From positions 1 to 64,000 of the forward strand of contig JBEWZL010000157.1 in the NCBI GenBank assembly GCA_045837725.1: a stretch of DNA of 64,000 nt, read 5' to 3'. Position 1 is the first letter of the stretch, and each line of letters starts with the position of its first letter. Below the pieces are notes generated by a model. The model was not told where the DNA came from, searched no databases, and worked only from the letters and a program-made list of their open reading frames with translations. This document shows positions 64-63,081 of the stretch, piece after piece. Made by a program: the position numbers and the translations under genes. Origin of the DNA: Vermamoeba vermiformis (Eukaryota).

Positions 64-639
64 TTAATATTTTATTATGTAATTTAAAGTCAAGAATGGT
101 TGCATGATCGGATGAGGCTGCGAACCACCAGCATTAGCGGTGTTCGTAACAAAAGGTCCAGGATTGGCTGGTCCATTCGGCCAGACCCATTCGTGATTTC
201 CACCGCCAGGCAACTGATTGTTCATCAACCATAGTGATCCTGTTGTCCCTGGCGAGGGCAATCGCATGTTCAATTGAGGGAGATTCAAAGTGTGATTGTG
301 TGCAGGGAGCTGATCCACAGTTAAAGTATGCGACTCGGATCCACCTTTCGTGCCCAACGTGCGGTTAGTTAATCCAGCGCCTTGGCCCGTTCCAATAATT
401 ACTCTTCCTCGCAGATCTGGTACGTGAGGTGCTTGTGTTCCTGGAGGCGAATATCGTGAACCAAGTATTTGAGCTAGCGTGGCGTATTCAGGATGATTGA
501 CCAAATCAAGTGCTGAGCCGTCGCAAAAAAGCCAACCCCGGGGACAAGTAGTGCCGGCAAAGGGGCAAATAGTACTCTCGGGGATCAGTTGGTTAATTTG
601 TTGTTGAAGGTTTGTTAATGTCGGAGGAGTGTCGCTCAT
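64..639 (-). CDS. Phage tail-collar domain protein (MdpB/microcystin-dependent-like), intronless
   Basis: Motifs ICPFAG..CPRGWLFCDG, PDLRGRVIIGTGQGAGLTNRTLGTKGGSE.HTLT..QLPAHNH and C-terminal GGSQPHPIMQPFLTLNYIIKY match the tail-collar/MdpB pattern; single uninterrupted ORF. Confidence 0.9.
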   Translation of the reverse strand: MSDTPPTLTNLQQQINQLIPESTICPFAGTTCPRGWLFCDGSALDLVNHPEYATLAQILGSRYSPPGTQAPHVPDLRGRVIIGTGQGAGLTNRTLGTKGGSESHTLTVDQLPAHNHTLNLPQLNMRLPSPGTTGSLWLMNNQLPGGGNHEWVWPNGPANPGPFVTNTANAGGSQPHPIMQPFLTLNYIIKY

Positions 640-867
640 GTTGGCAGTTTGATTGAGAATGAGTTATAGCTTCGCTCCTATTTTATATTTTCGATTCTTA
701 GCCACGTGACATGACTTTTCAACTAACTTTCACCCTCGTACTTTGGTCAATTCTTTTTCAAACAGAATACATTTGTTTATTCTTTCAGTCCATGGACTGG
801 TGTAAATTAAAACTTTTCGCTTCAACCATTATTAAACGTTTTTGTATTTACCGCACCAAATTTTACT

Positions 868-1684: not shown

Positions 1685-4600
1685 TTACACGTCTTCGTAA
1701 AAGATTGAAGGCTTCTTTTTCTTGCCCAACAATCTGGCCCGCAATCTCAAACAGGCCTTGATGAGCTCCATCACCGCAGTGTGCACAATCATCGAAGCAA
1801 TGACTGCAAGCCAATCGTAGCCGTTTAATGGATACAATTCAATTAAATCATTGAATCCAGGCACGTAGATTGACAACACGAGCAATGTCGTCGATAAAAA
1901 GAACGCGCCGATCAGCCATCTGTTGCCGATCAGACCCGTCACGAATATCGATTGCGTTTGAGATCGCGATAAGAACGAGTGCCACAACTGCGTCATTGTC
2001 AGCACGGTGAAGGTCGTTGATCGGGCGTGACGCACGTCATAGCCAAAGTACGTGGTTGTCACGAGCAACACGCCCAAGGCCAGACCTGCCATGGACAGGC
2101 CTTGTGCCACTAATACTAGCGCCGATCTCACCGTGAAAATGCCTTGTTTGGGATTTCTAAGAATGAATTAGCAAATATTTTTCACGGAAGGTGTTTTGTA
2201 GGCTTACCTCGGTTTGCGAGCCATGACATCTTTCTCACTCGGATCAATACCCAACGACATTGCCGGAGGAATATCAGCTGTATTATTATATAAGGTCTCG
2301 GGTACTTATTAATGAAATAGATTTGACTCACCAATGATATTTGCCCAGAGAATTTGAATGGGTGCAAAGGGCACTGGCGCAGCGATGATGACCGCAAGCA
2401 ACATGACGAAGATTTCAGCAGCATTGCACGACAAGAGATACAAAATGAACTTCTTAATGTTGTCGTAGATTCTACGGCCTTCTTGCACGGCATAAGCGAT
2501 GGTCTTAAAGTTGTCGTCGGCCAGTACAATGCTCGCTGACTGCTTCGTAATGTCAGTGCCTGTGATGCCCATGGCAACACCGCAGTCAGCTCGCTTAATG
2601 GCCGGTGCATCATTTACGCCGTCGCCAGTCATCGACACGACCTCATTACGACTCTGCAAGGCTTCAACAATTTGCAACTTGTTGTCAGGTGACACGCGAG
2701 CAAAGACAGTCGGGAACGGGTCCAATGTCTTCAGTTCGCCGGTAGATGTCAACATGTCAATCTGATCGCCTGTCAGCACCGTGGAGTGTTCACTGGCCAG
2801 GCCTAACTTGATTGCAATCGCTTTGGCTGTTGAAGGATGATCGCCAGTGATCATGCAGACACGAATACCTGCTCCTTGACACTACAAGTATCTGGGTTAG
2901 AAGTGTTCTTTTGACTAATCTTTGACCAGGACTTACGCGTGCAATGACTTTAGCGACTTCTTTTCTAGGCGAGTCCATGAGACCAATCAGGCCGACAAAG
3001 TTCAACTGATCTTCGACTTGATTGATGTCCTTAAAGTCGTCGTCGTGCTTCTCGTTGAGGTTAAATGACTTGTACCCAAAAGCAAGAATTCTGAGTCCAT
3101 GTGCGGCCATCTTTGCTGCTTGTTTCTCGACCTTTTCAATCTTATCTTCGAGCGGCTTTTCTTGGCCCTTGGAATGATAGTGCGTGCATTTCTTCAACAA
3201 CGATTCCGGCGCACCTTTAGCGAAACAATAGTACTTGTCGTTGTTCTTATATACGACACTCATTCGCTTTCTTTCGGAGTCAAATGCGAACTCGTTCACG
3301 AACGTGAAACCTTGCTCTTGCGTGAACTTTTCCTTGCCCAGCCCAACTTTGATTGCCGCCAAGTGCAATGCGATTTCTACAAGACACTTAGCCTTGATAT
3401 ATTATATTAATATGGCTTTAAAGTACCTGTGGGGTCGCCAGTCATGGCCACAACGCCGTTGTCATCTTCCATCCAGCCAGTATTGTTGCACAATGCAGCG
3501 CCCATGAGCAACAGCTGCAAGTACTCAGGCACATTGACACGCGTGATCTCGACCTTGTCACCGTTCTTCAAGGTCCGCGTGATCTTGCTCGAGGTGTCGG
3601 TGTGGTCCATTGATCGGCCTTTGATGCGGTACTCGTGGCCTCCGACCCAGATCTTCGTCGCTCTCATTTTACCTTCCGTAAGCGTGCCGGTCTGTAATCA
3701 CAGTAAATCAATAATTCTCAGAATGTTACTGGTAAGACGCACCTTGTCCGAGCAAATAGTCGTGATGCTGCCCAATGTCTCAACAGCGTGCAATTTTCTC
3801 ACGACAACGTTGTGCTTGGCCATGCGCGAGACACCAATGGCCATGGTGACAGTAGTGACAGCGACGAGGCCTTCAGGAATGACTGACACCGCGAGACTGA
3901 TGCCGACACGCAGCATGTCGAGCCAGTAGTTGCCACGAGCAAAGCCGATCACCACGATCAACACGCACAAGACTACAGAGACTATTACGAGCCACAAGCC
4001 GAGTCGCGTGAGTCTCTTTTGCAGCGGAGTTCGTGGTGTCTTGGCTTTGGACAAGCGCAGCGAGATTTTGCCCATCTCAGTGTGCTCGGCTGTGGCGACC
4101 ACTATACCTTTGCCGCGACCTTTCACGACCATAGTAGACATGTAGCCCATGTTGAATCTATGAGGACGTTAATACTGGGTCAATTTGAGTTGGTTGTGGG
4201 TCGTACCTGTCACCAATAGGAAGTCGCTTGGTAGTGATTTGCTTCGTGCTTTTTTCGACGGCCGTAGACTCGCCTGTCAAAATTGATTCCACTACTTGCA
4301 AGTTAACGGCCTCACCTAAAGATATGCGTTAGTATTATGGTATTAGGGAGCTACTATTCACGTACATAGTCTGAGATCTGCTGGTACTTGCGCGCCTTCA
4401 TCGAGCAGTACTATATCGCCAGGCACTAACTCCGCAGCGACGATAATAGACACTTCGCCATCTCTCAATACCTTAGCTACCATATACTTCGTTAGACATG
4501 CCATTTCCAACGAAATTTCCTTACCTTGAGGCACATCCAGCTTGAGCAAAGAGTTCAAAGCTTTCTCGGCTCTATACTCTTGGGTAAAGCCAATGATGAC

Positions 4601-5737
4601 GTTGATTATAATGACTGTAGCAAGGGCTACCGTAGCTTTGTAATCTCCAATGCCTGCACTAGCTGCAGCGGCCGCAGCCAAAATGATAATCATCAGATCT
4701 TTGACTTGGTTCCATAAAATTTTCTTTAGAACAATTAGTAATGCTTCACGTAACACTTTCATGCCATTCTTACCCAAATGCTCTTTGGTTTTGCACGAGG
4801 AAGTAGATTTGATCCGTACTTCTCGCGTCGGGCAGGAATTTCAGACTCAGCCAGGCCCTTCTCAATAGACGTCTTGAATATGTTGACCGCAGTATCAACA
4901 TCTACATCATAGTAGGTCGCTGGAGGAAGAGTTAGTTACCTTTTCGGATCCAGTACGCGATCATTCAAGTTACTTACGAGCAGCTTGGATCAGCTTTTGA
5001 TCTTCCTCCGACATGTTCGGTAGTATGACGCTATTCTCAATGATCGACTTCATGTCTTTGAGCTTCTTTTCGACGTCGTTTACATCGTTAGGAATGAAGT
5101 TCTTCAGCTTGGAGTACTTAGAGAAGGATTGCTGAATGAAATAGACGAATTTTAGGGCCACTAATGAGTGTTCCTCGCCCATGTCGAGAACGTGCTTTTG
5201 AAGCTTCATTTGGCGCAGTTCTCCGACATTCTTCGACTCGATCGCAGTTCTGATCTCTTCGACTACGAAATTGAATCACGATTAGCATAGCGGCCAGAGA
5301 TTCTTTTGGTTAAATTTAGCTCAAATTGAAAGTTTGAAATTTCTAATCATTTCTTGTTTAATCGAAAATAAGCCGGATGTGGGCCGCATACCTTTTTGAG
5401 CGTATTCAAAGAGAACTACAAGGGCCAATTGCGAGTCTTGATTGAGCTGTCCTTTGACCTTGCTCTCGCGTTTGCCAATAGCTCGAATCAATACATCTAC
5501 AAGCGCGGATGCAGTCTGCGCATCAACACGTTCGATGCCGCTGTTGTGGATCAGCCAATTGCGTAGATTGGATAACGAACTGCGGGAGACATTTTCCGAT
5601 AGTGCTAATACTAATTGTTGAAACTGGCTAGCTTTGGTTTCTTTTTGCTCTTCGACCAGAAGAGAGAAGCTTTTTCGATCCGGTGTAGGAGATCCGATGC
5701 CGCGTCTTTTAGAAGAGGTAGGTGACCGAATGTCCAT
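1685..5737 (-). CDS. P-type cation ATPase, type II (most like IID/ENA Na+/K+ efflux pumps), multi-exon, with long N-terminal extension
   Basis: TGES, IPEGL, DKTGTLT (across an intron), KGAPE, MITGD, GDGVNDAPA, ILWANIIADIPPAMSLG; upstream exons 5737-5392 and 5262-4978 splice in frame; start codon uncertain. Confidence 0.9.
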
Positions 5738-27838: not shown

Positions 27839-29954
27839 TTAATCATCCTCCATATCATCTCCGTCCTCTTCGCTATTCGAATAGTCGCTCAGATCGCTAT
27901 CAGAATCGTCCAAGCAAACCGATAAGAAGTAGGCTTCAGTGGAGCGAGGTGCCAAGAAGTCGAACCAGCTCACTTCAGTTCTAGCGAACTGTATCGCTAA
28001 TGCTGCGAAGAAATTGACGGTTTCCAGATCCGATAAATTTTCTGGGAATTCCATTAATGTTTTTAGCTCTTGAATAACATCTGGATGATGAATAACCGGC
28101 GCAGAGTTCTTGTTTGGAGCTTGTACGTATGTCAATAGTGCAACGGTCTCTTTTTCTTTCTTTTCGAGCGACTTGATCCCGACGCCGCGGATCATCAAGC
28201 TGCTGTAATTGTTCATGCTTTCAAACTGAGCGGCAAAACGTTAAAATATGATAATACAATTGCTTTAAATGTAACGTACGTTATCTACTTTGAATACGGC
28301 CATTTGAGAACTATTAAAAGTGATCGAGTAGCCAAAGGTGGACCAACGTCCAAACATCGCTGTAAACTCCGTTAATATCGCTTAAAATTATTATTATAAC
28401 TCGTATAGTACGTACTGCGCAGGGGTTTAGTCAACTCTGCGAAATTTCTTTCGAGTTTGAACCACTCGATCTTGTTCGTAAACAGATCTTGCAACTTAGC
28501 GAGGTTATATTGCGGCACTATTGATCCCATATGCTTAGCAATATCAACGAAGCGCTTTTTGTTCTTAATTCGCATGATCGTCATCAGCCAATAAGCCTGC
28601 AGTGCGTTACGCAGCTGATCGTGGTAAAGTGTTGCTCGTTCAAGCGAATCAAATGTGACTTTATGCCCTGAAATCATCTTCTTTAATTCGTGGGTGAGCT
28701 GGGCTAACGAAGGAGTCTTTCCGCCAGGCAAGATCTGCGACGAAAAATTTTTGAGATCCCATCCGGAACAAATCCGCTTTCAAACTTTACCTCTTCGATG
28801 CGATCGTCGATTATAGAGAAAGGACCATTGCCTTGTTCGACTAATAAAGGACTACCATCCATTGAAACTTCAATTTCGTGGTTGGAATAGCCTAGCGCGA
28901 GCTTGTGGTAGTTGAACATCGATAGAACAAAGCGAATGAAGCAGTATTCATGTTCATGAGGCTCATATTCATCTCCGTACGTATGTTTCAAGCTCCATTG
29001 AGGTACACCAAGCGCTGTTACGAGGCTACAAAAAAAAGTCAGCCACATCTGCATTGTTTTAGAGTTACTTACGTATTGATGGTCGTCTGTGAGATTTGTA
29101 ATACTCCGTTGACTATTCTTCCATTATTGATAGCAAGTAGACCCAATTTTCTATCGTATTCTTCGTAATTGCTCGTAAAATCATCGAAGATCTCCTTGCT
29201 GGTTCGGAGTTCGCCAGGCGCCTTCTTATTTTTGTAGTCAATAATGCCCGCGACCATGGCACCGCTCATTTGAATATCGCCCATGTAGGAAAAGTACGAT
29301 TGAAGGATAACTAAAAGAAAAACATTGTCAGTGATCAAATCCGTCATTTAATCACATATTTCGAGGAAATACCATAAGAGCTGTTATTGTTTGGTATATG
29401 GATGCCAATTGTCTGATTTACTGGTCCTAATTGAAGGTATACCGCAGAATTGAAGATATTCTTCGCGATATTTTTGTCCTCATCCGTTTTAAATATTTGG
29501 TCGATCATAAAGGGGACTACAGCTCGTTGTTCCTGCACGTTGACCCACTAAATATAATAAATTAATTATTTTGAAAATATTAATTAAAAGAAAAAAACGC
29601 GCGGTAAATATTATTCCGGCTTGATCTTACTCTAACGAGGGTTCCAAATAATGAACTTGTTTTAGGCTCCCTAATGGCAGTAACATCGTTGAAATTTAGC
29701 ATCGTCTTTCGTAAAGCAGGCAATAGACCAACGAATCTGTTTGGATTCAGTTGATCTACTTTCTTCTGAAACGCCTTGCTAACCAATCTACATTGTAAGA
29801 ATATAGGAATGCTATTTTCTACCATTTTTTGGAACGGATTGCGCGTTTCTGGGTCGTGGATGTGTCTAGCTCCATCCGAAGCAGGCGTCATTGGCTCGCT
29901 CAAATGAGCTAATATTTGCTCAAATATTTCTTCTGGACAATCCAATAAGTTCAT
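27839..29954 (-). CDS. F-box protein (F-box with insertion) with acidic C-terminus
   Basis: MNLLDCPEEIFEQILAHL ... IFLQCRLVSKAFQKKVD; multi-exon; ends DDSDSDLSDYSNSEEDGDDMEDD. Confidence 0.65.
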
Positions 29955-30456
29955 TAGGGCAAGATGTTGTGCTGATCGGTGCAACTGTCAAAATGCAATT
30001 CGCGACAAATTCCGTTTTTATCTTGCCCTATTTCCTGGAAATAGCTTACCTGAGGGACAGGTTGTGTTCCATTATCCCAATATTGCTGCTCTAGTCTTTT
30101 GAGCGGATTTTTTTATGTAGGAAGTCACCTTGGGCGAAATTGCAGTAGCCGAACCAACAAAACTTCCGACAGCAGAATTAGGCCTCACAAATCATGGAGT
30201 GCACTGACAAGACAAACACCAATCCTATTCATTCACCAGTGTCTCACTTAGCATCGTTGTAATTGCTTGGTTGTCATGATCGTGGCAACTTATTTTATTA
30301 CACGCATTGATTGTTCGTATTACAGAGCAACAAATGACCACCAATAGAATCGTTTGTGACACTCCTTGCCCTTGTGCTATATCGCCTTCTTACTCCACAC
30401 GTTCATCGTGTAACGGATGCTGGATCAGTCAGATTTTCTGTTCTGGAGGTACCTCG

Positions 30457-35808: not shown

Positions 35809-38800
35809 TCAACCGTCAAAATTGTTCAAGTACTCTTCTTCTTGCAACATCCGCGCCATTTCTTCGTCGGTCATAAATTCCATGTTATTAACCGGATTAG
35901 CTCCTGGCGTGGGAACAAAATTATTTGGTTGTTGAGGTTGTAGGTGACCAGGCAGGAAATTATTATTATCGTGTAAAGGTACGTTTCGCCATATTGTTCT
36001 CGCTTGATCCGCAATTCTTTTTTGTTCCGCTTCATTTTTTCTTTTCGCCTCCTCGCGCCTTCGCATCTCTTGTTCTTCTTGTAGTTTTTGTTCGTTGCGC
36101 TGCTTTTGTGCGTGGTACTCCATTGACTTGCGCATTGCTTCAGCGTTCATTTGATCTAGAAGGTATTTGTTCTCGCCTGTAATCTCCACTTTATTTTCGA
36201 CTTTTTCCGGCGCGTAGAACATCTGCGCAGAAAAAAAAATCAGAAAATAATATTTCCAAATATGGTAATAATGACTTACATCGAGATCATCGTCATCGTC
36301 GCTAATTTGCATGCTATCACTTTCATCTTCATCTTCGCTGATCTGATCTTGATCTTCATTCTCTGCCTCGCTGTCGTAGGATTCTTCGCTCTCGTCCGAA
36401 CCATAATTATCGTCGTTGCGAGAGGTCATATTGTTGTTACTATTTGTGGTATGATAGTTCGATTTCTTGATCGACTGGTCTTGCGAGTTACTTAGGCCGG
36501 CATCCTTGTTCTTGCCAAAGTTGATTAAAGCCGAATGGAACAAACCAAAGCTGCGTAGTTCGTTCTCAACAGGTGTTGCCTCGCGCAATTTTTGAATCAA
36601 AGTCGTGTTGGTCAAACGAAGTTCTTGCACTGTCTTGTCATAGGTGCTCAGATCGAGAATCGTCTTCGGCGGCACTACCAAGTCAAAGGCCTTGTCGCCA
36701 AGTTTGACGGCACTGTATTACCAAATTAGGAAATGTCGGTCAAAACCAGCGGTTGAAACTTACTGTCTTGCGTAGGCATAAAGATCTATCACGCGATGCG
36801 TAGGATTGCAATTGATATTCATCACGGCACCAGATGTCAATCTGTTCATGAATTAGCATAATCTGCTGTTTGACACGTGTCATCTTTGACATACCTAATC
36901 TTGACACGTACGACCGGTTGATCAGAACGAAGACTAATTTCTTGCTTCGAATACATTTCGGCAATCCTATGAAGGCATTAGTATCGTTATAAATGGTAAA
37001 TGAATGACCTACAATTGCACGTCCTTCATCGACAAGTTGGATCCGCTCGACTTCAACAACGCGGGCAATTTTTCCATTGGCGACATCTCTTTTCTAATGC
37101 CCGAGAATGCGCTGAGTAAATTCGTCTTTGTCAGTTCTGATCGTCGTGGCAGCAGATATTTTAAGCTCCACTTGTGTTGCGACCCGTAGATCATTTGAAT
37201 TTCTGCGATAAAATGTCAAAAACTCCGCTCAAAGCCAAAATAGTATGAATTATATACGTACGATCGCCAAATAATTGTTCCGCTCGCTCCTGTAAATGTC
37301 CCATAAACTGCACGGACCTCAAATGCTTCATGTTGTGCATGGCGGCAAGAATTTCACTGAACATCATGTTGGACTTCCATTGCAGATGATACAACGTGAG
37401 AGGTATATTAAATGACTCCTTATAAAGGCCATGAATGTCTTCGACTTCCAACACTCTCAATCGAGTCGGTAGTTTGACATCCACGCCTAAATAAACTTCT
37501 TGTAATTTCAAGGCCTGTAGATTTTTGTACCGGCCCAAATCGATTCTCCGCAGTGTAAGGTTATTTGGGAGAGCATTTACGATTACGACTGGCCGACGAA
37601 TGAACGAGAGCTTTCTCACTGGATGATCGGAAAAGTTGGCGTTGGATCCGAGATCCGAGGCGTCTTCGTTTTGATTGGTGATAGTGGTTGAATTTGCAAG
37701 GCCTTCTATTATTAGATCTTCCGCAAATGGAAATTTTTCGAGTAATTTCTCAAAGTGTAGCGTTTCAAGTTTGAATTCGGGAATTCTGTTGATTTCTAAC
37801 GAGACATTTTTGAGCGACTTTGATCGCGTGAGTAGGTCGATTGCACCAACTGGCATTTGCATAGGAACTAGTTTCAAGCTCTTCAAATGATATCCTAATA
37901 TCTGAGTGTCGTCCTGTTGCTTTTTGTCCATTTTTAGAGTTGCTCCTGATAAATCTAAGTGTTCCAAATTAGGAAAAAGTTGCAACAATTCAACGACATC
38001 CACCGTTCCACTTTGCAAAATTAATGTGCGTAGGGTCAGGCACGGATCGATCGGCAAAGTATAAACTGCCAGCGTTGGTGCGTAAAACGAAGTCGGTCCT
38101 TCTTTCCAAGCACCATCGCCCGAAGTTATTTCCGTGAAATCGTAATTCAACTTTTTGTTCGTGAAAATGAAGTGAATTTTTGCTATTGCGCCTGCAGCAA
38201 GTGATCTTTCGCCTATTAATTCAGACTTATCATCTTCTATTATTCGTGACAGGCCCGACACTTCTTCTAACTTTTGACACGTGTCATTGATTGCGTCCAA
38301 GACAAACTTTGACACTTTGACTGACATATCTGTTCGTAATACTCTCAAATTCTTTGCACTACATAAATATCATTAGTATTATATTAATTATATCCCTACT
38401 ATGCCTTTCTTACGCAATAGGGCCAATTTCTTGAACAGTGTGCTCGCGGTGGCGATATTTACAAATGAATTCTTGCAAGTTTGGCGCGTGCATCAAAAAA
38501 AACTCGAATAATTTGACGTGTTCTGCGGTGAGAATTTGATTCTTCGCCGTTGAAATATTCACGCTGGCCAGATTCGGAGGCAATTTGAACGGAACCGACT
38601 GGATCTTCGGAAGTGCAACGTTTCTTAGTTTGAGCGCTCTAAAAAATAGTTAGAATATTATATAATAATTAGAATATTGTTGATATTAAAATTATTATTA
38701 TTTGCTGCTACGTACATTAGATCAGGAAAATAGCGCAATTGTTCCAACCACATTTCGTCCATTGACGCGGAGTTAATTTCAAGGTGAACTAATTTAATAG

Positions 38801-45227: not shown

Positions 45228-48200
45228 TTACATTGTCCGAGATAGCTCCGGCGATGAAGCACCGCTATCGGTGAAGTCATCCGTGTAGTTCAGATCATCG
45301 CGCGAATCGTTCAATGAATTCGAAACACGCAGGACAGGATTAGCATTAGATGCCAATACATATACTTTGTCGCTGACTCGGAGCGGCAGACTTGGATCTG
45401 GATTCGTTACGACAAAACCGCGGGATGTCGCTCGTACTCCATCTAATGTTCGGCGATAAAGACCAAGCGCCAGAATATTTTGATTCAACAAACTCTTAAA
45501 TAGATCTTCAAACGTGTTCCGTTGCTATAATAACAGAGTTAATGTCATGATAAAGACAAAAAAAATTGGATGCAGATCCGATTACGTACCATTCCGTCGG
45601 GCAATGAGATCAATATTAAATTGTCTTTGAAGGTCTGTTGTCTCATAGGCTCGTCGTTAGTATCTTTCCACTGCACGAATTGTCGCACAATGTCCAATAA
45701 TAGCGGATTGACCACTGCTTGCGCCATCAAGATCTGAATGAAGTGACTATGGAATACTGAACCACGCATAAATTCTAAGAATAGGCGATGAGTACATACT
45801 ATCATATTAGTATTGTCAATGAAGGACGTACCTGGATATAAATACGGGTCCTTAAAGTGGGTCGTGTTCGCGAATCCCAAACTTTCCAAAGTGAACAGCT
45901 CTAAGATCACGTGACACTTGGGGAAGTAATTGCGAATATTTACATAGGCCAAGATAGTGTTGCGATCAGGCGAAGATGAGTCTGGGTCCTAGTACAACAA
46001 GTTGTTAATGCCCGCTTCATACTCGCGCAAATTGATCACGATTTAAAGAATAATAACAAAGAGCTTGACTTCGTGATACTCAGGTCAAAATGAACAATAA
46101 TTGACATCAAGACGATGAAAAGTATTAATCGTGTGATAAATTTCTTACGTATTTTGTGCCGACTAAGATGCACACAGAAGCCAAGTCGATGTTGACGCTG
46201 ATCAAATCTTGCATGTTGATCGCAGAGCCCTTTAAAAGAAAACACAATAGTTAATCCTAATCCTGACGAAATTTCATGAAAAAACATCACTGCGTACCTG
46301 CTGCACCCAGACTTCAGGGAACATGGCAATTTTGTTCCACTTCTCCGGTGTCATTGTCGTGCTGAGAATGACGATCGGCTTCAGCTCGCTAATGTGTGCC
46401 TCACGTAACGGCGCGATGAAATAGAACCAATCGGTCATATCACCTGAGATGATAATATGATTCGACACGTTCTTCGGCATACTCTGCCCTTCGCTATAAG
46501 TTGGTGGCTCATCGTAACAGGCGTACTGGCCCTTCAAAATATCTGGGTCACGTGATCGGAACACATTCGTCCAGTACTCGCGAGACGAGCTGGAAATATC
46601 AATAGAATTTCTTCTGCCTTCTTCTACTGACGACTTGACTGAGCCAGGGGCCTGTGTGTGTGTCATCAGACTCGACAACTTGATTTCAGACTTGTTCAAG
46701 TTGAGCGACATCGGATCTCGTGTGATGAAAAAGGCAACCTCACCGCCCTCGATGATGTACTAATAAGGTGTGAGCAGCTGTATAGTCAAATATATATCGA
46801 TCTACTTACGTCATTGCCAGGGTTCAATGAAATGGTGTTGTCCTGCATTTGAACGGCAAAAAGGATGGATTTGTAGTTCTTGTAGATCAGCTGATAAAAG
46901 CGTTATTAAAATTGAATTAAGAGCTTCAAATAATATATATTACCTTAACAATGTCATTAAATCTGCTTCCAGAAAGAACTTCAGGCAATCTAGCCATGAA
47001 GATCTGGTTGTTGGATCCGTCATCTTGCCGCACATGTCAGTGAGTGCCCATACATTAATATCACTCTTTATACTTACAATATTCATATAGGTCCGTATCT
47101 TGATCGTAATATTCCGCCCTAACTTTAACCGTGCGAATAAGATTGGTGATAAATGTGAGTGAACCCTTCACCATTGTGGCCTTAGCCAACATGCCCATGC
47201 GCAGCTCCAAGTATGAGAAACTGTACAAATATTTGCCAACAGACCTCAATAACGTCTATATATGTGTAAGTAAGGTTATCTATGTCGTTGGTATTACACT
47301 TACATTGGTCTCGGGAAATCTCATTTGCACGAAGATTGGCAATCTCTTGCGAACATTTCTGAAGCACAAACAATACAGTGCGTTATCTAAATATATCGAT
47401 TAGTACATATATAATATGCAATAATAACCCTTTCGTACCTAGGTCTTTGCTCTCAATGTTTTCAGTGAGCTCGGGATCCACGACGATAAAGCAGGCCTTG
47501 GCTTTATCAACACGAATACGCGCTAAATCTTTAGGGTGCTATTATTGTAATTAGTACAGGCACGATATTGATTACCATCGTTCTTACCAAAGGAGTGCCC
47601 CTGTAAAAGTAGATGCGTTGATAGAACTTGGTTCTGGCCAACAGTTCCAATTCTCTACTCGGATAATCTTTCAACAGCACCACCATTTTGTACAAATTTC
47701 GATTTCTTTTGCTGTAAAATTCATTCGCAAACGCCACCAAGTTGCCGTAAGTTATGTGTCCAGTCACTATCACGTGCTTCATGCCTTTCAAACGAATGAA
47801 ACTGCCATCGTATCTGCCCAACATCTTTTGCAATAATTTGCCAAAGTATACGGCCTAGGGGTGTGTGATTAGCATGTAATTACAACGCATTATCATGCGA
47901 GGGAAGTTACCTGAAGTGGCACCAAAACGACTGATGACAGCACCATTATCACAACGAAAAATCGGCCCAGACCAGTTTTAGGCGCCATATCACCATAGCC
48001 GAGTGTAGTAATCGACACTACGACAAAATATAATGCCACGTGAAATTCATTGTTGACTGTGTCTGGCTCCACCTGAAGCGAAAAGTTAGCGACTCGCAAG
48101 TGCGTGTACGTGGAAACTTACAATTAGAATAATACATGTGGACACGAAAATCAATGAAAATACGGTGAATGTCAATCTAAATACTTGTCTCCATAGTACT

Positions 48201-51137: not shown

Positions 51138-53069
51138 TTAGAAAACATATAAACTCTTTCTCTCCTTCTTGATGATGTCTCTATCCATGATGTATACAGT
51201 GGAGAATAAGAGGAACAATGCGATAGCGCTCAAGAAATGCCTAAAATAGTTGTTAGATCCCGATCGACCTTCAATTTCAGCGTTACGTACCAAACATCGT
51301 GAGTATCAAAATAATCAAATGCAAAGCACGGCTTATTTAACTTCTTCGACTCATCGAAAGGCAAAAACTACCAAGCTAGTTAGTACGCAACTCGCCGTTC
51401 AGTGAACGAACGTACCTTGTTTGTAACAGGGATTTGGAAGAAATAAAGTGCTCCAGACTAATTTAAAGTTATTACGTAGTCTATTTGAATAAATAATATG
51501 ACTTACAGTAAACGACAAGCAGTTGAGCCACACAAGCCACACAAACCAAGGAGGTCTTTCAGCGTGTCTGAACTTCATCACTGTGTACCAGACGAGGTAC
51601 ATCAGATCTACTAACACTAGCAGGCCCCTGACTCATCGTTAATAAAAGGATAATATGGCTCATAATGACTTACAAGCAAATTGTCGGGAAGTCCAAAGTA
51701 TCAGCGATAGTGATGCCATAACCCGCGGCCAAGATCAATATCGTGTAAGCAACAGCGTTACCGACGAGGACGAATGTCAAGCGTGCCTTGTCTCCGTGCC
51801 ATTTGCGTCGCACAGTACGCAAGATCTTGCGTGGCTTGCAAATAGGCATGCGATGGTGATACAACATGTGGTACGAGCCAAACAAAGAGAAATACGTCCA
51901 CAATACGAACACAATAGGCCAAAAGCTAGCAGTAGTTCGTAAACAAGTCGAATAAGATACTATTTTGAACCACTTACACATAAGGCGGGAAGCTAACGAG
52001 CGACAAAAAGTTCAAAATGACTACGATAACGAGCAAGCCAAATGTACGGAATGGTCCAGGACTGAGCGAATGTTGTCTCTTTTGATATATACAGACGAAG
52101 AGAAGCAATGCACCAGCGAACATAAACGTTGTGTCTACGGTCGAATTAGTCGCTTGACACGGTGCTAGACACGTCACGTACCGAATTGAAAATTGAGCTT
52201 ACTCGGGCACACATGATACAATGCCGAGAAGATGCCTAGTATAATATATTAATACCGAAGTCAAATCATAGAACTCGTTATATACCTTCAAAAATGAGTG
52301 CCAAACCCATACAATAGAAGAGTGACATATCTGTGTGCAGACCATGCAATCCATCTTCTTCAGGCTTGGTGAACTTGACAATTAAAATGAACGATACACC
52401 AGCTGCTATATAACCAATATTGCTGATAACTGAAGTAGGACACGTTAGCAACTAGAAGATGGTTCATTTGCCACGTACCATTATTGAATGCTGAAATAAA
52501 CCAAAAGTCGTGCTTGCATTTAAAATTATAATAACATGAGACTTCTTTTGTTTGATATTGAAAGAATACGAACTGGACAGTGTGCCGTTAGTGGTGACGT
52601 AGTAATGGCATTGGCACTTTCATACCTGGACTGAAGGAAGCATATAAAACAAAGCGGCTATCACGAGCACCTTTGGTCATGTTTAGCTATTGAGATAGCA
52701 ATGCGCCAGACTACATCTGAAACTTACCTTGTAAAACTAAAAATATAAATAAATTAATAATTTGAATACGCAAAGATTATATGAAGTCTTAACGATATAA
52801 GACTACTAACGAGGCATTTAAGAATTTTCAGTCGGCTTCACTTTCGGAAAAATCGAAAATTGACTTACTGGCTTCATGTAAACCAAAGCTTTGGCGGGCT
52901 TTATCTTGCCGTGTTCGAATACATCGTGTATTGTCTTTGGATTCGGAAAATTGAGCTTTTCTTCAATTACGGTAGTTCTGTTCACGATCAGCTCGTCCTC
53001 ATCTCCTGGGAGCTCCCTCACTGACGACGAAACTTGTATTTCTTCTATCAAAGGTTGCCGTTCGTCCAT
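51138..53069 (-). CDS. SID-1/SIDT transmembrane family protein lacking the ectodomain
   Basis: FYMLPSVQ, CYYNFKCKH..SAFNNVISNIGY, SALYHVCP..NFQFDTTFM, CFAFDYFDTHDVWHFLSA, C-terminal DRDIIKKERKSLYVF. Confidence 0.92.
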
Positions 53070-53243
53070 TGAATACAACCTCTCGAAGATTTGTTGCACC
53101 GCATCAATCTATCACAAAAATAATGAAATTAACCATGTTTTTGGGAAAGCACTTTAGCGAGATTTCCCGCACCAGTACGCGACTGAGCAATCTCGGATTT
53201 ATTTATTTGTACCAGCCTTTAGCTAGACAATAACGGCTTTAAG

Positions 53244-54326
53244 ATGTTCAAGTTCGTCAACTCCGTTACTAGCATCTTCCGCAAGCAGTTCCAGCCTGCA
53301 GTAGACGTCGACAGAACAACGGCAGATGAGTCGTCCTTCATGCCTGAAAGCACAATCGCGTGTCTCTCTGATGCACCGTTAGCTGCAAAGCCTCTACTTC
53401 ATCACACGGGAGTCACCATTGGCCCAGAGTTCATCTCCGATACGGTTGAAGATCGGCATCTGCAGCAATGGAGGCTCGCTCAAGAAGACGACGTTTCAGA
53501 CTTCTATGTATTGAAGACGCCTACGCGCGAGAACGAGAGGCCTAAGGAACGCAGTTCATCGCCAAAGCTCAACTCAGAGTTCTTCTTAAGGGCCTTCTTG
53601 AAGCAGTGTCGCGAGCATCAGTCCTTCTTAACAGATTCAATCTGCATCGATGAACATATATTATCTGCAGCATACATTTACTATAGACGGTAATTATAGC
53701 CGATTGCTATTAATTAAATCGATTTTCTTCATTTTGAAATTTGAAAATTAGGGCGCGCGTACCGGTGGCGGAGTACAAAGACGAAGAGCTCTTCTTCTCA
53801 GCGCTATTCTTGTATGATATTGCACCCATATACTAATTGATCCTAATTTGTTGAGCAGAGCATGGCAGGTTCAAGAAGACAGTCACAAAGGCGAGTACGG
53901 TACGAACGAGTCTCCGTTGTGCTTCTATTGCTCTCTTCTAACTGTTGCTAAGAAATCCTCGAGTATCTCTACGGAGAGCCACCTCGAATCCATAAATCTG
54001 AAAGAAGAAAAATGAACAAGAAAGCCAAATCCGCTCATCGACGGCTGGTCAAGGCCTACAAGCGCAATGTGCTCAATTTTATGGAAGCCAAAGATAAGGT
54101 ACGTTGTAGTTAATAGGAAGTAAGGCTAAGGTTTCATTCTTACCAGCTGTGGCGCCGGTTGGACTATCGTGTCAGCATCGAGCCTGAACTTGTCTGGACC
54201 GTTATTCAGTATCTTAAAAAGTACGAGTCTGTATTCAACATTAGCCAGTGCAACAGAGAATCGCACTTTCTGTTGGAGCTGAACGACAGTGACACCGAGC
54301 TTTCATCCATCCCCGATTCAGATTAA
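53244..54326 (+). CDS. Speedy/RINGO-like (Spy1 domain) CDK activator, 5 exons
   Basis: Spliced core IDEHILSAAYIYYRRA..FFSALFLAWQVQEDSHKGEYEILEYLYG..NFMEAKDKLWRRLDYRVSI matches the Speedy/RINGO box pattern. Confidence 0.8.
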
Positions 54327-54900
54327 TTATTGTTTGGTATCAGAATTCGCCGAATATTAACGATAATATTGTATCCATATTTGCTATGATAAAATTTGAT
54401 ACGAGGATAATTTAAACATCAATATTGAATAATAAAATCATTTCGGATGTTTAGTGACCGTTCAGAACCACCTTTTACCTGGTAACTGCTCTCGTGCGCA
54501 TGAATGTATTAAGGTCTGCGTTGATACTGTGATCGTATCCTCGGTGGCATTAGACAGCCCCGTGAGAAGGCACATGAGTAATCTAGCATCGTACGTTGCT
54601 TGCAAGCACATCCGAAGCGAAGGTCTGGCAGATATCTGTAGACCTTGCAGGAGATACGCCGACTCACGGATTAATTAATTAAGTTGTGTTCGCCACTAAA
54701 GGAAATTAAGTTTTATTTGCCGTGGAGATTACGCGAGAGATTGTTTTTTTGCAGCGAGCGGCAGCAATTTCAATTTTGAACGCTATTTGCAACGAACGAA
54801 CACCACTCGCAAGATTTTGCTCGATTTTGCATATTCGACATAGTAGATTCTCTAGGAGCGAGTCATTCTTATTAACCAATTATGCGTCTGGCAAGGTGAA

Positions 54901-58547
<3,647 letters not shown>

Positions 58548-62010: not shown

Positions 62011-63081
62011 ATGAACGTGGTCACATCTCTGAAAGAAGCTTTGAGAGAAATTGAAGACAAGCGGAGGCAAAAAGAAGAATCGCCAGATAATACATTAGAA
62101 AATATATCTGAATTATTGAAAGTAGTGACAGCTCGATTTGAAGACCTAAACGAATCTGACGCGAACCAAGGTCTTTGTGCCGAGTTATTAGCGGAGGATA
62201 TTCCAGTGCGATTAATCCATCATGTAATATATTTGAATAATAACGTTACGAAAGACGTGAAGAATTTTATTCAGGCCCTCTTGAAGTACAAAATTAACGA
62301 TCAACAACCGGCATTAGCTTATTTCTCTTCAAATATTGCTGTTATATTGGACAGAATATTAAATGGCCTCGAGAATGCATTGACAGAAAATGGTGGATGG
62401 TGGGCTATGGAAATTTTGACAGCTTGTATGAAATACGGATGCTTGACGGTTCAGATGCTAAATCTAGCGACAATCCGCAGACTTGCACAATGGGCGACAG
62501 TAGACGATTTTGACATATCAGGTGCGGGAGTGCATGCATTACGACAGTTACTGTCCTCCCAGCCAGATTTGGTCTTGGAATTTCTGACACCAAATTTTGA
62601 AGCGTTTTTTGACGTCATAATCGACATGGTGGACGCTAATACCCGTAACACGGGCAGAAGCGTTATGGGATTACTACGAAATATGTTGTTCCAGCCCACA
62701 TACAAGCAATTTATGTTAAAGTTTGTGGCAGATGAGCCTCAAAAATACGCTGCGTTTGTTATCGAGCAGCAGTTAACGCCTTGGACTTCCTATCAATTAG
62801 ACGTATGGCACGTTTTCAAATTATTTGTGGCCTATCCGAACAAAGTGAGTAAATTTCAAAACAGCATCGACTAGTCTACTAATTTTCTTCAGACTCCCGC
62901 TACGAAAAGGCTGTTAATCGAGAATAGAGAGGACCTATTACCAGTAATTAACCGATTGAGAGGGCTCATTTGGAATCCTGATGATGTTGAGGAAGTGGAT
63001 CACGTTCATTACTTACTCTCAAATATGACCGAAGACTCGCATCAATTTAGCAGCAAAGAAATGGGGGCTGCGCAATTCTAA
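62011..63081 (+). CDS. Divergent Mo25/CAB39-like armadillo-fold protein
   Basis: KDVKNFIQALL, DFDISG, EFLTPNFEAFF, WHVFKLFVAYPNK, LIENREDLL. Confidence 0.8.

Follow-up and report, generated by a model that had tools for sequence, protein, structure and literature searches.

A conserved five-exon gene with a probable Speedy/RINGO-type box in the genome of a probably non-animal eukaryote

The stretch of DNA analysed here (64,000 nucleotides, hereafter the window) contains, at positions 53244-54326 of the forward strand, a real and evolutionarily conserved protein-coding gene of five exons. On the evidence of its sequence, we consider it probable that the 290-residue product of this gene has a Speedy/RINGO-type box and that it would activate a kinase of the CDK1/2 type independently of phosphorylation. 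The animal Speedy proteins are described as binding CDK1/CDK2 and holding the activation loop in the active state without T-loop phosphorylation, by means of an acidic loop in which an aspartate replaces the phosphothreonine. The Speedy proteins and the cyclins have the cyclin-box fold in common; however, the full CDK activity obtained with cyclins requires the phosphorylation of the T-loop, which Speedy bypasses. The gene of the window is a modest extension of this known family, and the feature that is its own is a conserved basic insertion.

Gene structure and conservation

The earlier note on this DNA had proposed five exons with canonical splice sites that encode three quoted peptides, and this proposal was borne out. 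The exons, spliced by script from their coordinates (Table 1), yield a coding sequence of 873 nt and 290 aa without internal stops, in which IDEHILSAAYIYYRRA, FFSALFLAWQVQEDSHKGEYEILEYLYG and NFMEAKDKLWRRLDYRVSI are all contained, and the four introns are all of the GT..AG type, which goes well beyond chance expectation. The remark that an ORF track displays exon 1 only is equally correct: the sole long ORF is placed at 53223-53693 (156 aa from stop to stop) and includes exon 1.

Table 1. Coordinates of the five-exon gene, of its parts and of neighbouring features in the window
Feature	Position	Strand	Description
Exon 1	53244-53689	+	ATG at 53244; aa 1-148 plus 2 nt; poorly conserved N-terminal region, then the start of the box, including D136
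D136	53649-53651	+	in exon 1
Intron 1	53690-53751	+	62 nt, GT..AG, phase 2; in-frame stops
Exon 2	53752-53811	+	60 nt; RARVPVAEYKDEELFFSALF
Intron 2	53812-53858	+	47 nt, GT..AG; TACTAAT branch-like box
Exon 3	53859-53899	+	41 nt; AWQVQEDSHKGEY
E175	53875-53877	+	in exon 3, acidic loop
D176	53878-53880	+	in exon 3, acidic loop
Intron 3	53900-53952	+	53 nt, GT..AG; CTAAC 12 nt ahead of AG
Exon 4	53953-54098	+	146 nt; EILEYLYG, conserved basic insertion, NFMEAKDK
Basic insertion	53976-54071	+	aa 191-222
Intron 4	54099-54146	+	48 nt, GT..AG, phase 0; in-frame TAA and TAG
Exon 5	54147-54326	+	LWRRLDYRVSIEPELVWTVIQYL..., acidic C-terminal tail; stop TAA at 54324-54326
Speedy-box-like region	53565-54218	+	aa 108-255, broken up by the four introns
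AATAAA	54431-54436	+	about 105 nt past the stop; possible polyadenylation signal, from sequence alone
ORF with Phage Tail Collar domain	67-663	-	199 aa
P-type ATPase, type II	1688-4840	-	multi-exon
ORF with weak F-box match	29583-29987	-	
ORF with leucine-rich-repeat look	37194-38369	-	392 aa
Slowpoke-like RCK pieces	45231-47854	-	three exon ORFs
CAMKL-type kinase	54856-58544	+	UBA-like and KA1 domains
Mo25-like gene	62011-62871	+	very divergent

A scan of metagenomes provided three related loci, designated L001, L002 and L003. Over the length of the gene, L002 does not differ from L003, and L001 contains only a part of it. The intron positions are common to the three loci, and the DNA alignment places GT..AG at all four homologous positions of L002. 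The nucleotide identity to L002 is 69, 83, 88, 77 and 72% for exons 1-5, respectively (exons 2-4 being gapless), against 63, 45, 56 and 52% for introns 1-4, which contain indels (6 nt in the case of intron 2) and in-frame stops. The spliced L002 ortholog has 281 aa and keeps the MFKFV start. The comparison of the whole gene with L002 gives a dN of 0.21 and a dS of 1.44 (dN/dS 0.14). The strongest constraint in the protein falls on the box (aa 108-255), whose dN/dS is 0.077, versus 0.31 for the N-terminus. The collinearity of L002 with the window extends over positions 51269-57497 and takes in the gene upstream as well as the kinase downstream. The exons and introns of the ortholog, the dN/dS values and this collinearity indicate that the gene model is sound and that the protein is under purifying selection.

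The search for relatives was extended to proteins: HMMER was run in full against 1.84 billion representatives, and the read-through of exon 4, intron and exon 5 (P0001, stops written as X) served as the query. Five proteins were matched, and no known Speedy is found among these matches. Four of them (P0002, P0003, P0004 and P0006) are short ORFs with 54-87% identity to either exon 4 or exon 5 and are read, from their sequences, as putative single exons of the genes of relatives: P0002 is 80% identical to exon 5, and P0003, P0004 and P0006 are metagenome fragments that cover exon 4. The remaining match, P0005, belongs to the FG-GAP repeat proteins; it was picked up through a repeated pentapeptide ('DLVWT') and was rejected as a relative. 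The scans of genome contigs and of viral contigs returned no relatives, and the word-index searches of protein collections came back empty.

A basic insertion of about 25 aa that splits the box had also been described, and it is confirmed. The insertion counts 13 K/R among 32 residues; its conservation extends to L002 (without indels) and to P0003, P0004 and P0006, with a dN/dS of about 0.10 against L002. This conservation identifies the basic stretch as coding sequence, and the possibility that it is an unrecognised intron was ruled out by the absence of indels together with the low dN/dS. The distance between the YEI and LW motifs of the box is 47 residues in the window protein versus 22 in human SPDYA, according to the human numbering that we assume. 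The insertion would form a surface loop between these two motifs, and a nuclear-targeting (NLS) role for it is a guess. In addition, one contig from run X7 departs from the window at 53998, and its next 8 letters are the same as 54145-54152. Such a join (53998 to 54145) would disrupt the frame by skipping 146 nt, namely most of the basic stretch and intron 4; the match is too short for an interpretation.

The expression of the gene was inspected in three RNA runs under one species label, which is also borne by the run that best contains the DNA of the window, each sampled to about 1.85 billion letters. A stretch of 2.5 kb gathers 5-19 RNA reads per run, almost none of them on the gene. No splice joints inside the gene and no RNA end at the AATAAA are found in the three runs, whose reads are only 95-99% like the window: this holds for 28 of the 30 reads of runs X21-X23 at positions 52500-55000. 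The species label of the RNA runs therefore covers diverged strains or species. Reads of a diverged strain may fall below the matching threshold, and the low coverage need not mean silence of the gene. The sexual or encystment programme suggested in the earlier note found no backing, given that there are next to no RNA reads on the gene and that the Dictyostelium Speedy gene speA is a marker of stalk and basal disc. In the upstream minus-strand gene, six reads from the three runs skip 291 nt (52578/52870). The ends of this skip read AG..CT, which is non-canonical on either strand. Six other reads at 52870 run into sequence that is absent at 52578, and the RNA strain may differ from the window at this place.

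Resemblance to the Speedy box

The membership of the product in the Speedy family is considered likely, based on motifs attributed to human SPDYA and on published contact residues. The motifs, which we take to be those of the human protein, are Y[FY][KR]RA, FF.A[LI][FY]LA, [EQ]ED, YEI and LW.[RK][LIM][DN]Y (motifs 1 to 5). Each of them occurs once in the spliced product, and they appear in this order (aa 146, 163, 174, 182 and 232, respectively). Across 200,000 composition-preserving shuffles of the product, motif 2 arose 0 times, motif 5 in a fraction of 2.5e-5 and motif 1 in a fraction of 7.7e-4. The six-frame translation of the window (127,996 residues) does not contain motif 2, and it contains motif 5 at this gene only. 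Motifs 1, 2 and 4 straddle exon junctions and exist only after splicing. Since these three motifs arise through the proposed splicing, the gene model and the resemblance to Speedy are supported together. The spacing of the motifs agrees, within one residue as far as YEI, with the numbering that we assume for human SPDYA.

This numbering is presumably right, being consistent with the published positions D97, E135, D136 and 134-139. In the alignment built on it, D136, E175 and D176 of the window protein are placed at the contact positions D97, E135 and D136, respectively, and all three are kept in L002. According to reviews and a 2026 study, D97 and E135 of human SPY1 hold the CDK2 activation loop in place, D136 mimics phospho-T160, and residues 134-139 form the acidic loop. 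The corresponding loop of the window protein (QEDSHKGE) has acidic residues at three of its eight positions, and its acidity is well below that of the human loop. The L002 ortholog differs in two of the five motifs (YYRWA and FEI) and has LDYQV in place of LDYRV.

The profile and structure-database searches had to be carried out with pieces of the protein. The Pfam queries were three exon translations, five exon ORFs, P0001 and P0007, the latter being a frame-0 read-through that contains exons 1, 4 and 5. The box is split over five exons and three frames, the pieces hold 13-48 box residues, and the core exons 2-3 were queried apart from the remainder, which confers low power to these searches. 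Within this scope, hmmscan with E values up to 10 gave no match to Spy1 (PF11357) in the exon translations, ORFs and read-throughs and, with equally low power, none to the cyclin families. Weak Pfam matches to DUF4890, HTH_48, RUFY4 and Sipho_Gp157 are located in the basic stretch, fall under the cut-offs and were taken as noise. The PDB sequence searches with pieces, read-throughs and two small profiles (E up to 10) returned no Speedy chain (5UQ1-5UQ3), and the matches, such as those to PYR1, ORF8 and a designed protein, were dismissed as chance. In the Atlas, exon 5 by itself was assigned to unnamed clusters only, with values of 0.79 and 0.76 and low recognition, a result that speaks neither for nor against Speedy. 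The designation as Speedy/RINGO-like, which dates from the earlier note, is still the best reading; it has the five motifs in their order as its support, and the Pfam and PDB searches of pieces added no Spy1 or Speedy match to it.

Two other identities of the product have to be weighed against a Speedy box. The gene may encode a conserved lineage-specific protein unrelated to Speedy, such as a nuclear protein organised around the basic stretch, the likeness being the result of chance or of an error in the motifs attributed to the human protein. The profile, PDB and database searches of pieces and read-throughs, all without Spy1, would agree with this, as would the lack of a full-length relative in protein collections. 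On the other hand, negative searches are low-powered on such short pieces, and the five motifs are in the right order with nearly the expected spacing. Two of these motifs are essentially never obtained in shuffles, three are formed only after splicing, and the assumed numbering agrees with the published D97, E135, D136 and 134-139. An unrelated protein is, consequently, regarded as improbable. An ordinary cyclin that has diverged (Pho80/PCL-like, cyclin Y or CNPPD1-like) could also resemble Speedy at low resolution by virtue of the shared cyclin-box fold. However, no cyclin family was found in the Pfam scans of short pieces with E up to 10, and the matching motifs are, we presume, specific to Speedy, which leaves a cyclin with a very small probability.

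The host genome and the neighbouring genes

The genome that carries this probable Speedy gene is, most likely, not that of an animal. The earlier note had called it apparently non-animal, and that description remains likely given the divergence of the neighbours (scores of the Mo25-like gene, the kinase and the ATPase), none of which is decisive. The neighbours are eukaryotic and include, besides the P-type ATPase, an alpha-amylase, an APH-type kinase, a Ras-family GTPase and a steroid 5-alpha-reductase-like gene, as well as Slowpoke-like RCK pieces, a kinase with UBA and KA1 domains and the Mo25-like gene. Judging from their sequences, several of these genes look too divergent for an animal. 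No RNA genes were detected in the window by Rfam at gathering thresholds. The GC content of the window varies between 34 and 49% (2-kb windows), and its DNA is represented in metagenomes of water, aquifer, biofilm and soil as well as in runs that bear the labels of other organisms. Vermamoeba vermiformis is described as a free-living amoeba with 41.7% GC and 3.5 introns per gene, ORFans making up one third (PMC7125106). Our guess is that the features of the window would fit a free-living amoeba such as this one.

Several neighbours deserve a description in their own right. The CAMKL-type kinase is placed directly downstream of the five-exon gene and is 87-100% conserved in L002, and the Mo25-like gene is found about 3.5 kb beyond it. 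In animals, Mo25 is the cofactor of a kinase that activates MARK-type kinases, and in view of this role the adjacency of kinase and Mo25 is curious. The P-type ATPase scores 160-164 bits against the bacterial Ca-ATPase LMCA1, SPCA and SERCA alike and, because of these near-equal scores, falls clearly in no animal subfamily. The three exon ORFs at 45231-47854 have weak Slowpoke-type RCK/Slowpoke_C matches (E 6e-9 to 6e-10), which suggest a divergent large-conductance K+ channel. The Phage Tail Collar domain of the ORF at one end of the window is clear (PF07484, E 1.2e-14) and lies on a eukaryotic contig, and this ORF may have been acquired by gene transfer, with bacteria or phages as the source. 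The ORFs with the leucine-rich-repeat look and with the F-box match (E 0.0025) have no significant Pfam family. A weak Innexin match (14 bits) at 35812-36717 was rejected, since the translation corresponds to an acidic low-complexity protein.

A further alternative accepts the Speedy box and places it in a small animal with short introns (rotifer, tardigrade or nematode-like), in which case the gene would be an ordinary animal Speedy. Small animals, too, can have a compact genome with introns of about 50 nt, and the water, aquifer, biofilm and soil metagenomes in which the DNA was found represent habitats of such animals. The Slowpoke-like RCK pieces of the window point in the same direction, although the matches are weak (E 1e-8 to 1e-10). 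On the other hand, the Mo25-like gene scores just 53 bits against human CAB39L, and the UBA/KA1 kinase scores approximately the same against SIK3, MARK, Snf1 and AMPK (72-64 bits), MARK not being clearly the best. Moreover, the scan of the 1.84 billion representatives found no annotated full-length relative, though annotated proteomes are available for most animal phyla. This counter-evidence is not decisive, and a small animal as the host is held to be unlikely while keeping an appreciable chance.

Published precedents, probable mechanism and comparison with known Speedy proteins

The notion of Speedy as a family restricted to the Metazoa, on which the earlier note relied, is out of date. A 2018 preprint counts 544 Speedy genes across 258 species. 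Of these species, four are non-metazoan (Amoebidium parasiticum, Capsaspora owczarzaki, Dictyostelium fasciculatum and D. purpureum), and the authors place the origin of Speedy before the Metazoa (bioRxiv 10.1101/354886). In Dictyostelium, the gene speA (speedyA, DDB_G0280357) has a Pfam spy1 domain and is conserved throughout the Dictyostelia, according to a paper from 2022 (PMC9117722). The same paper describes the expression of speA in the stalk and basal disc, to which the spores are added in taxon groups 2 and 3 (PMC9117722). Protist homologs are therefore already documented for Dictyostelium, Capsaspora and Amoebidium, one of the findings that the earlier note had listed as refuting its own reading. 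In the literature searched, no further reports of Speedy were found for Amoebozoa, holozoans or unicellular relatives.

The product of the gene would carry a single cyclin-box-like domain, whose sequence is not related to those of cyclins, and would bind a CDK1/2-type kinase through it. By analogy with human SPY1, D176 would then stabilise the unphosphorylated activation loop of the CDK. The same phosphorylation-independent mechanism appears the most likely one, because the matching acidic residues (D136, E175 and D176) are present and are conserved in the ortholog. The conserved and lineage-specific basic stretch (25 aa), which is predicted to be a loop between YEI and LW, may target the protein to the nucleus.

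If the membership in the family is true, the window provides a well-supported Speedy, validated by its introns, from a microbial eukaryote that had not been sampled and to which at least three lineages in freshwater metagenomes are related. The residues that allow the animal Speedy to bypass the phosphorylation of the T-loop would then be old, and the conserved basic loop insertion would represent a natural variant. The current picture is not overturned, because a pre-metazoan origin of Speedy is already published. A bolder reading is also conceivable, and we hold it only tentatively, as rather doubtful. The host would be a free-living amoeba or some other protist of a lineage in which no Speedy has been reported, possibly outside the Dictyostelia and Holozoa, with the contact set Asp/Glu/Asp kept; the phosphorylation-independent activation of CDK would go back to the ancestor that amoebae share with animals, or further; and the basic loop would redirect the activator, for instance to the nucleus or the chromatin, in a specialised life stage.

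The comparison with the cyclins (Cyclin_N, Pho80-like) extends to the expected fold and to the CDK partner, which would be alike, but no cyclin profile matched the pieces of the window. Human SPDYA/SPY1 (RINGO A), whose structures with CDK2 are deposited as PDB 5UQ1-5UQ3, likewise has a single box of about 130 residues. The motif series of the human protein is presumably in the same order and has nearly equal spacing. Human SPDYA differs from the window protein in lacking, by the numbering assumed here, the 25-residue basic insertion, in an acidic loop that is far more acidic, and in N- and C-terminal regions that are unrelated to those of the window protein. The proteins of Capsaspora owczarzaki, Amoebidium parasiticum, Dictyostelium fasciculatum and D. 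purpureum are non-metazoan members of the family and are comparable by their published description. Among the known systems, speA of Dictyostelium, likened by description as well, is the closest published precedent, since it is also a Speedy-domain gene of a non-animal amoeboid eukaryote.
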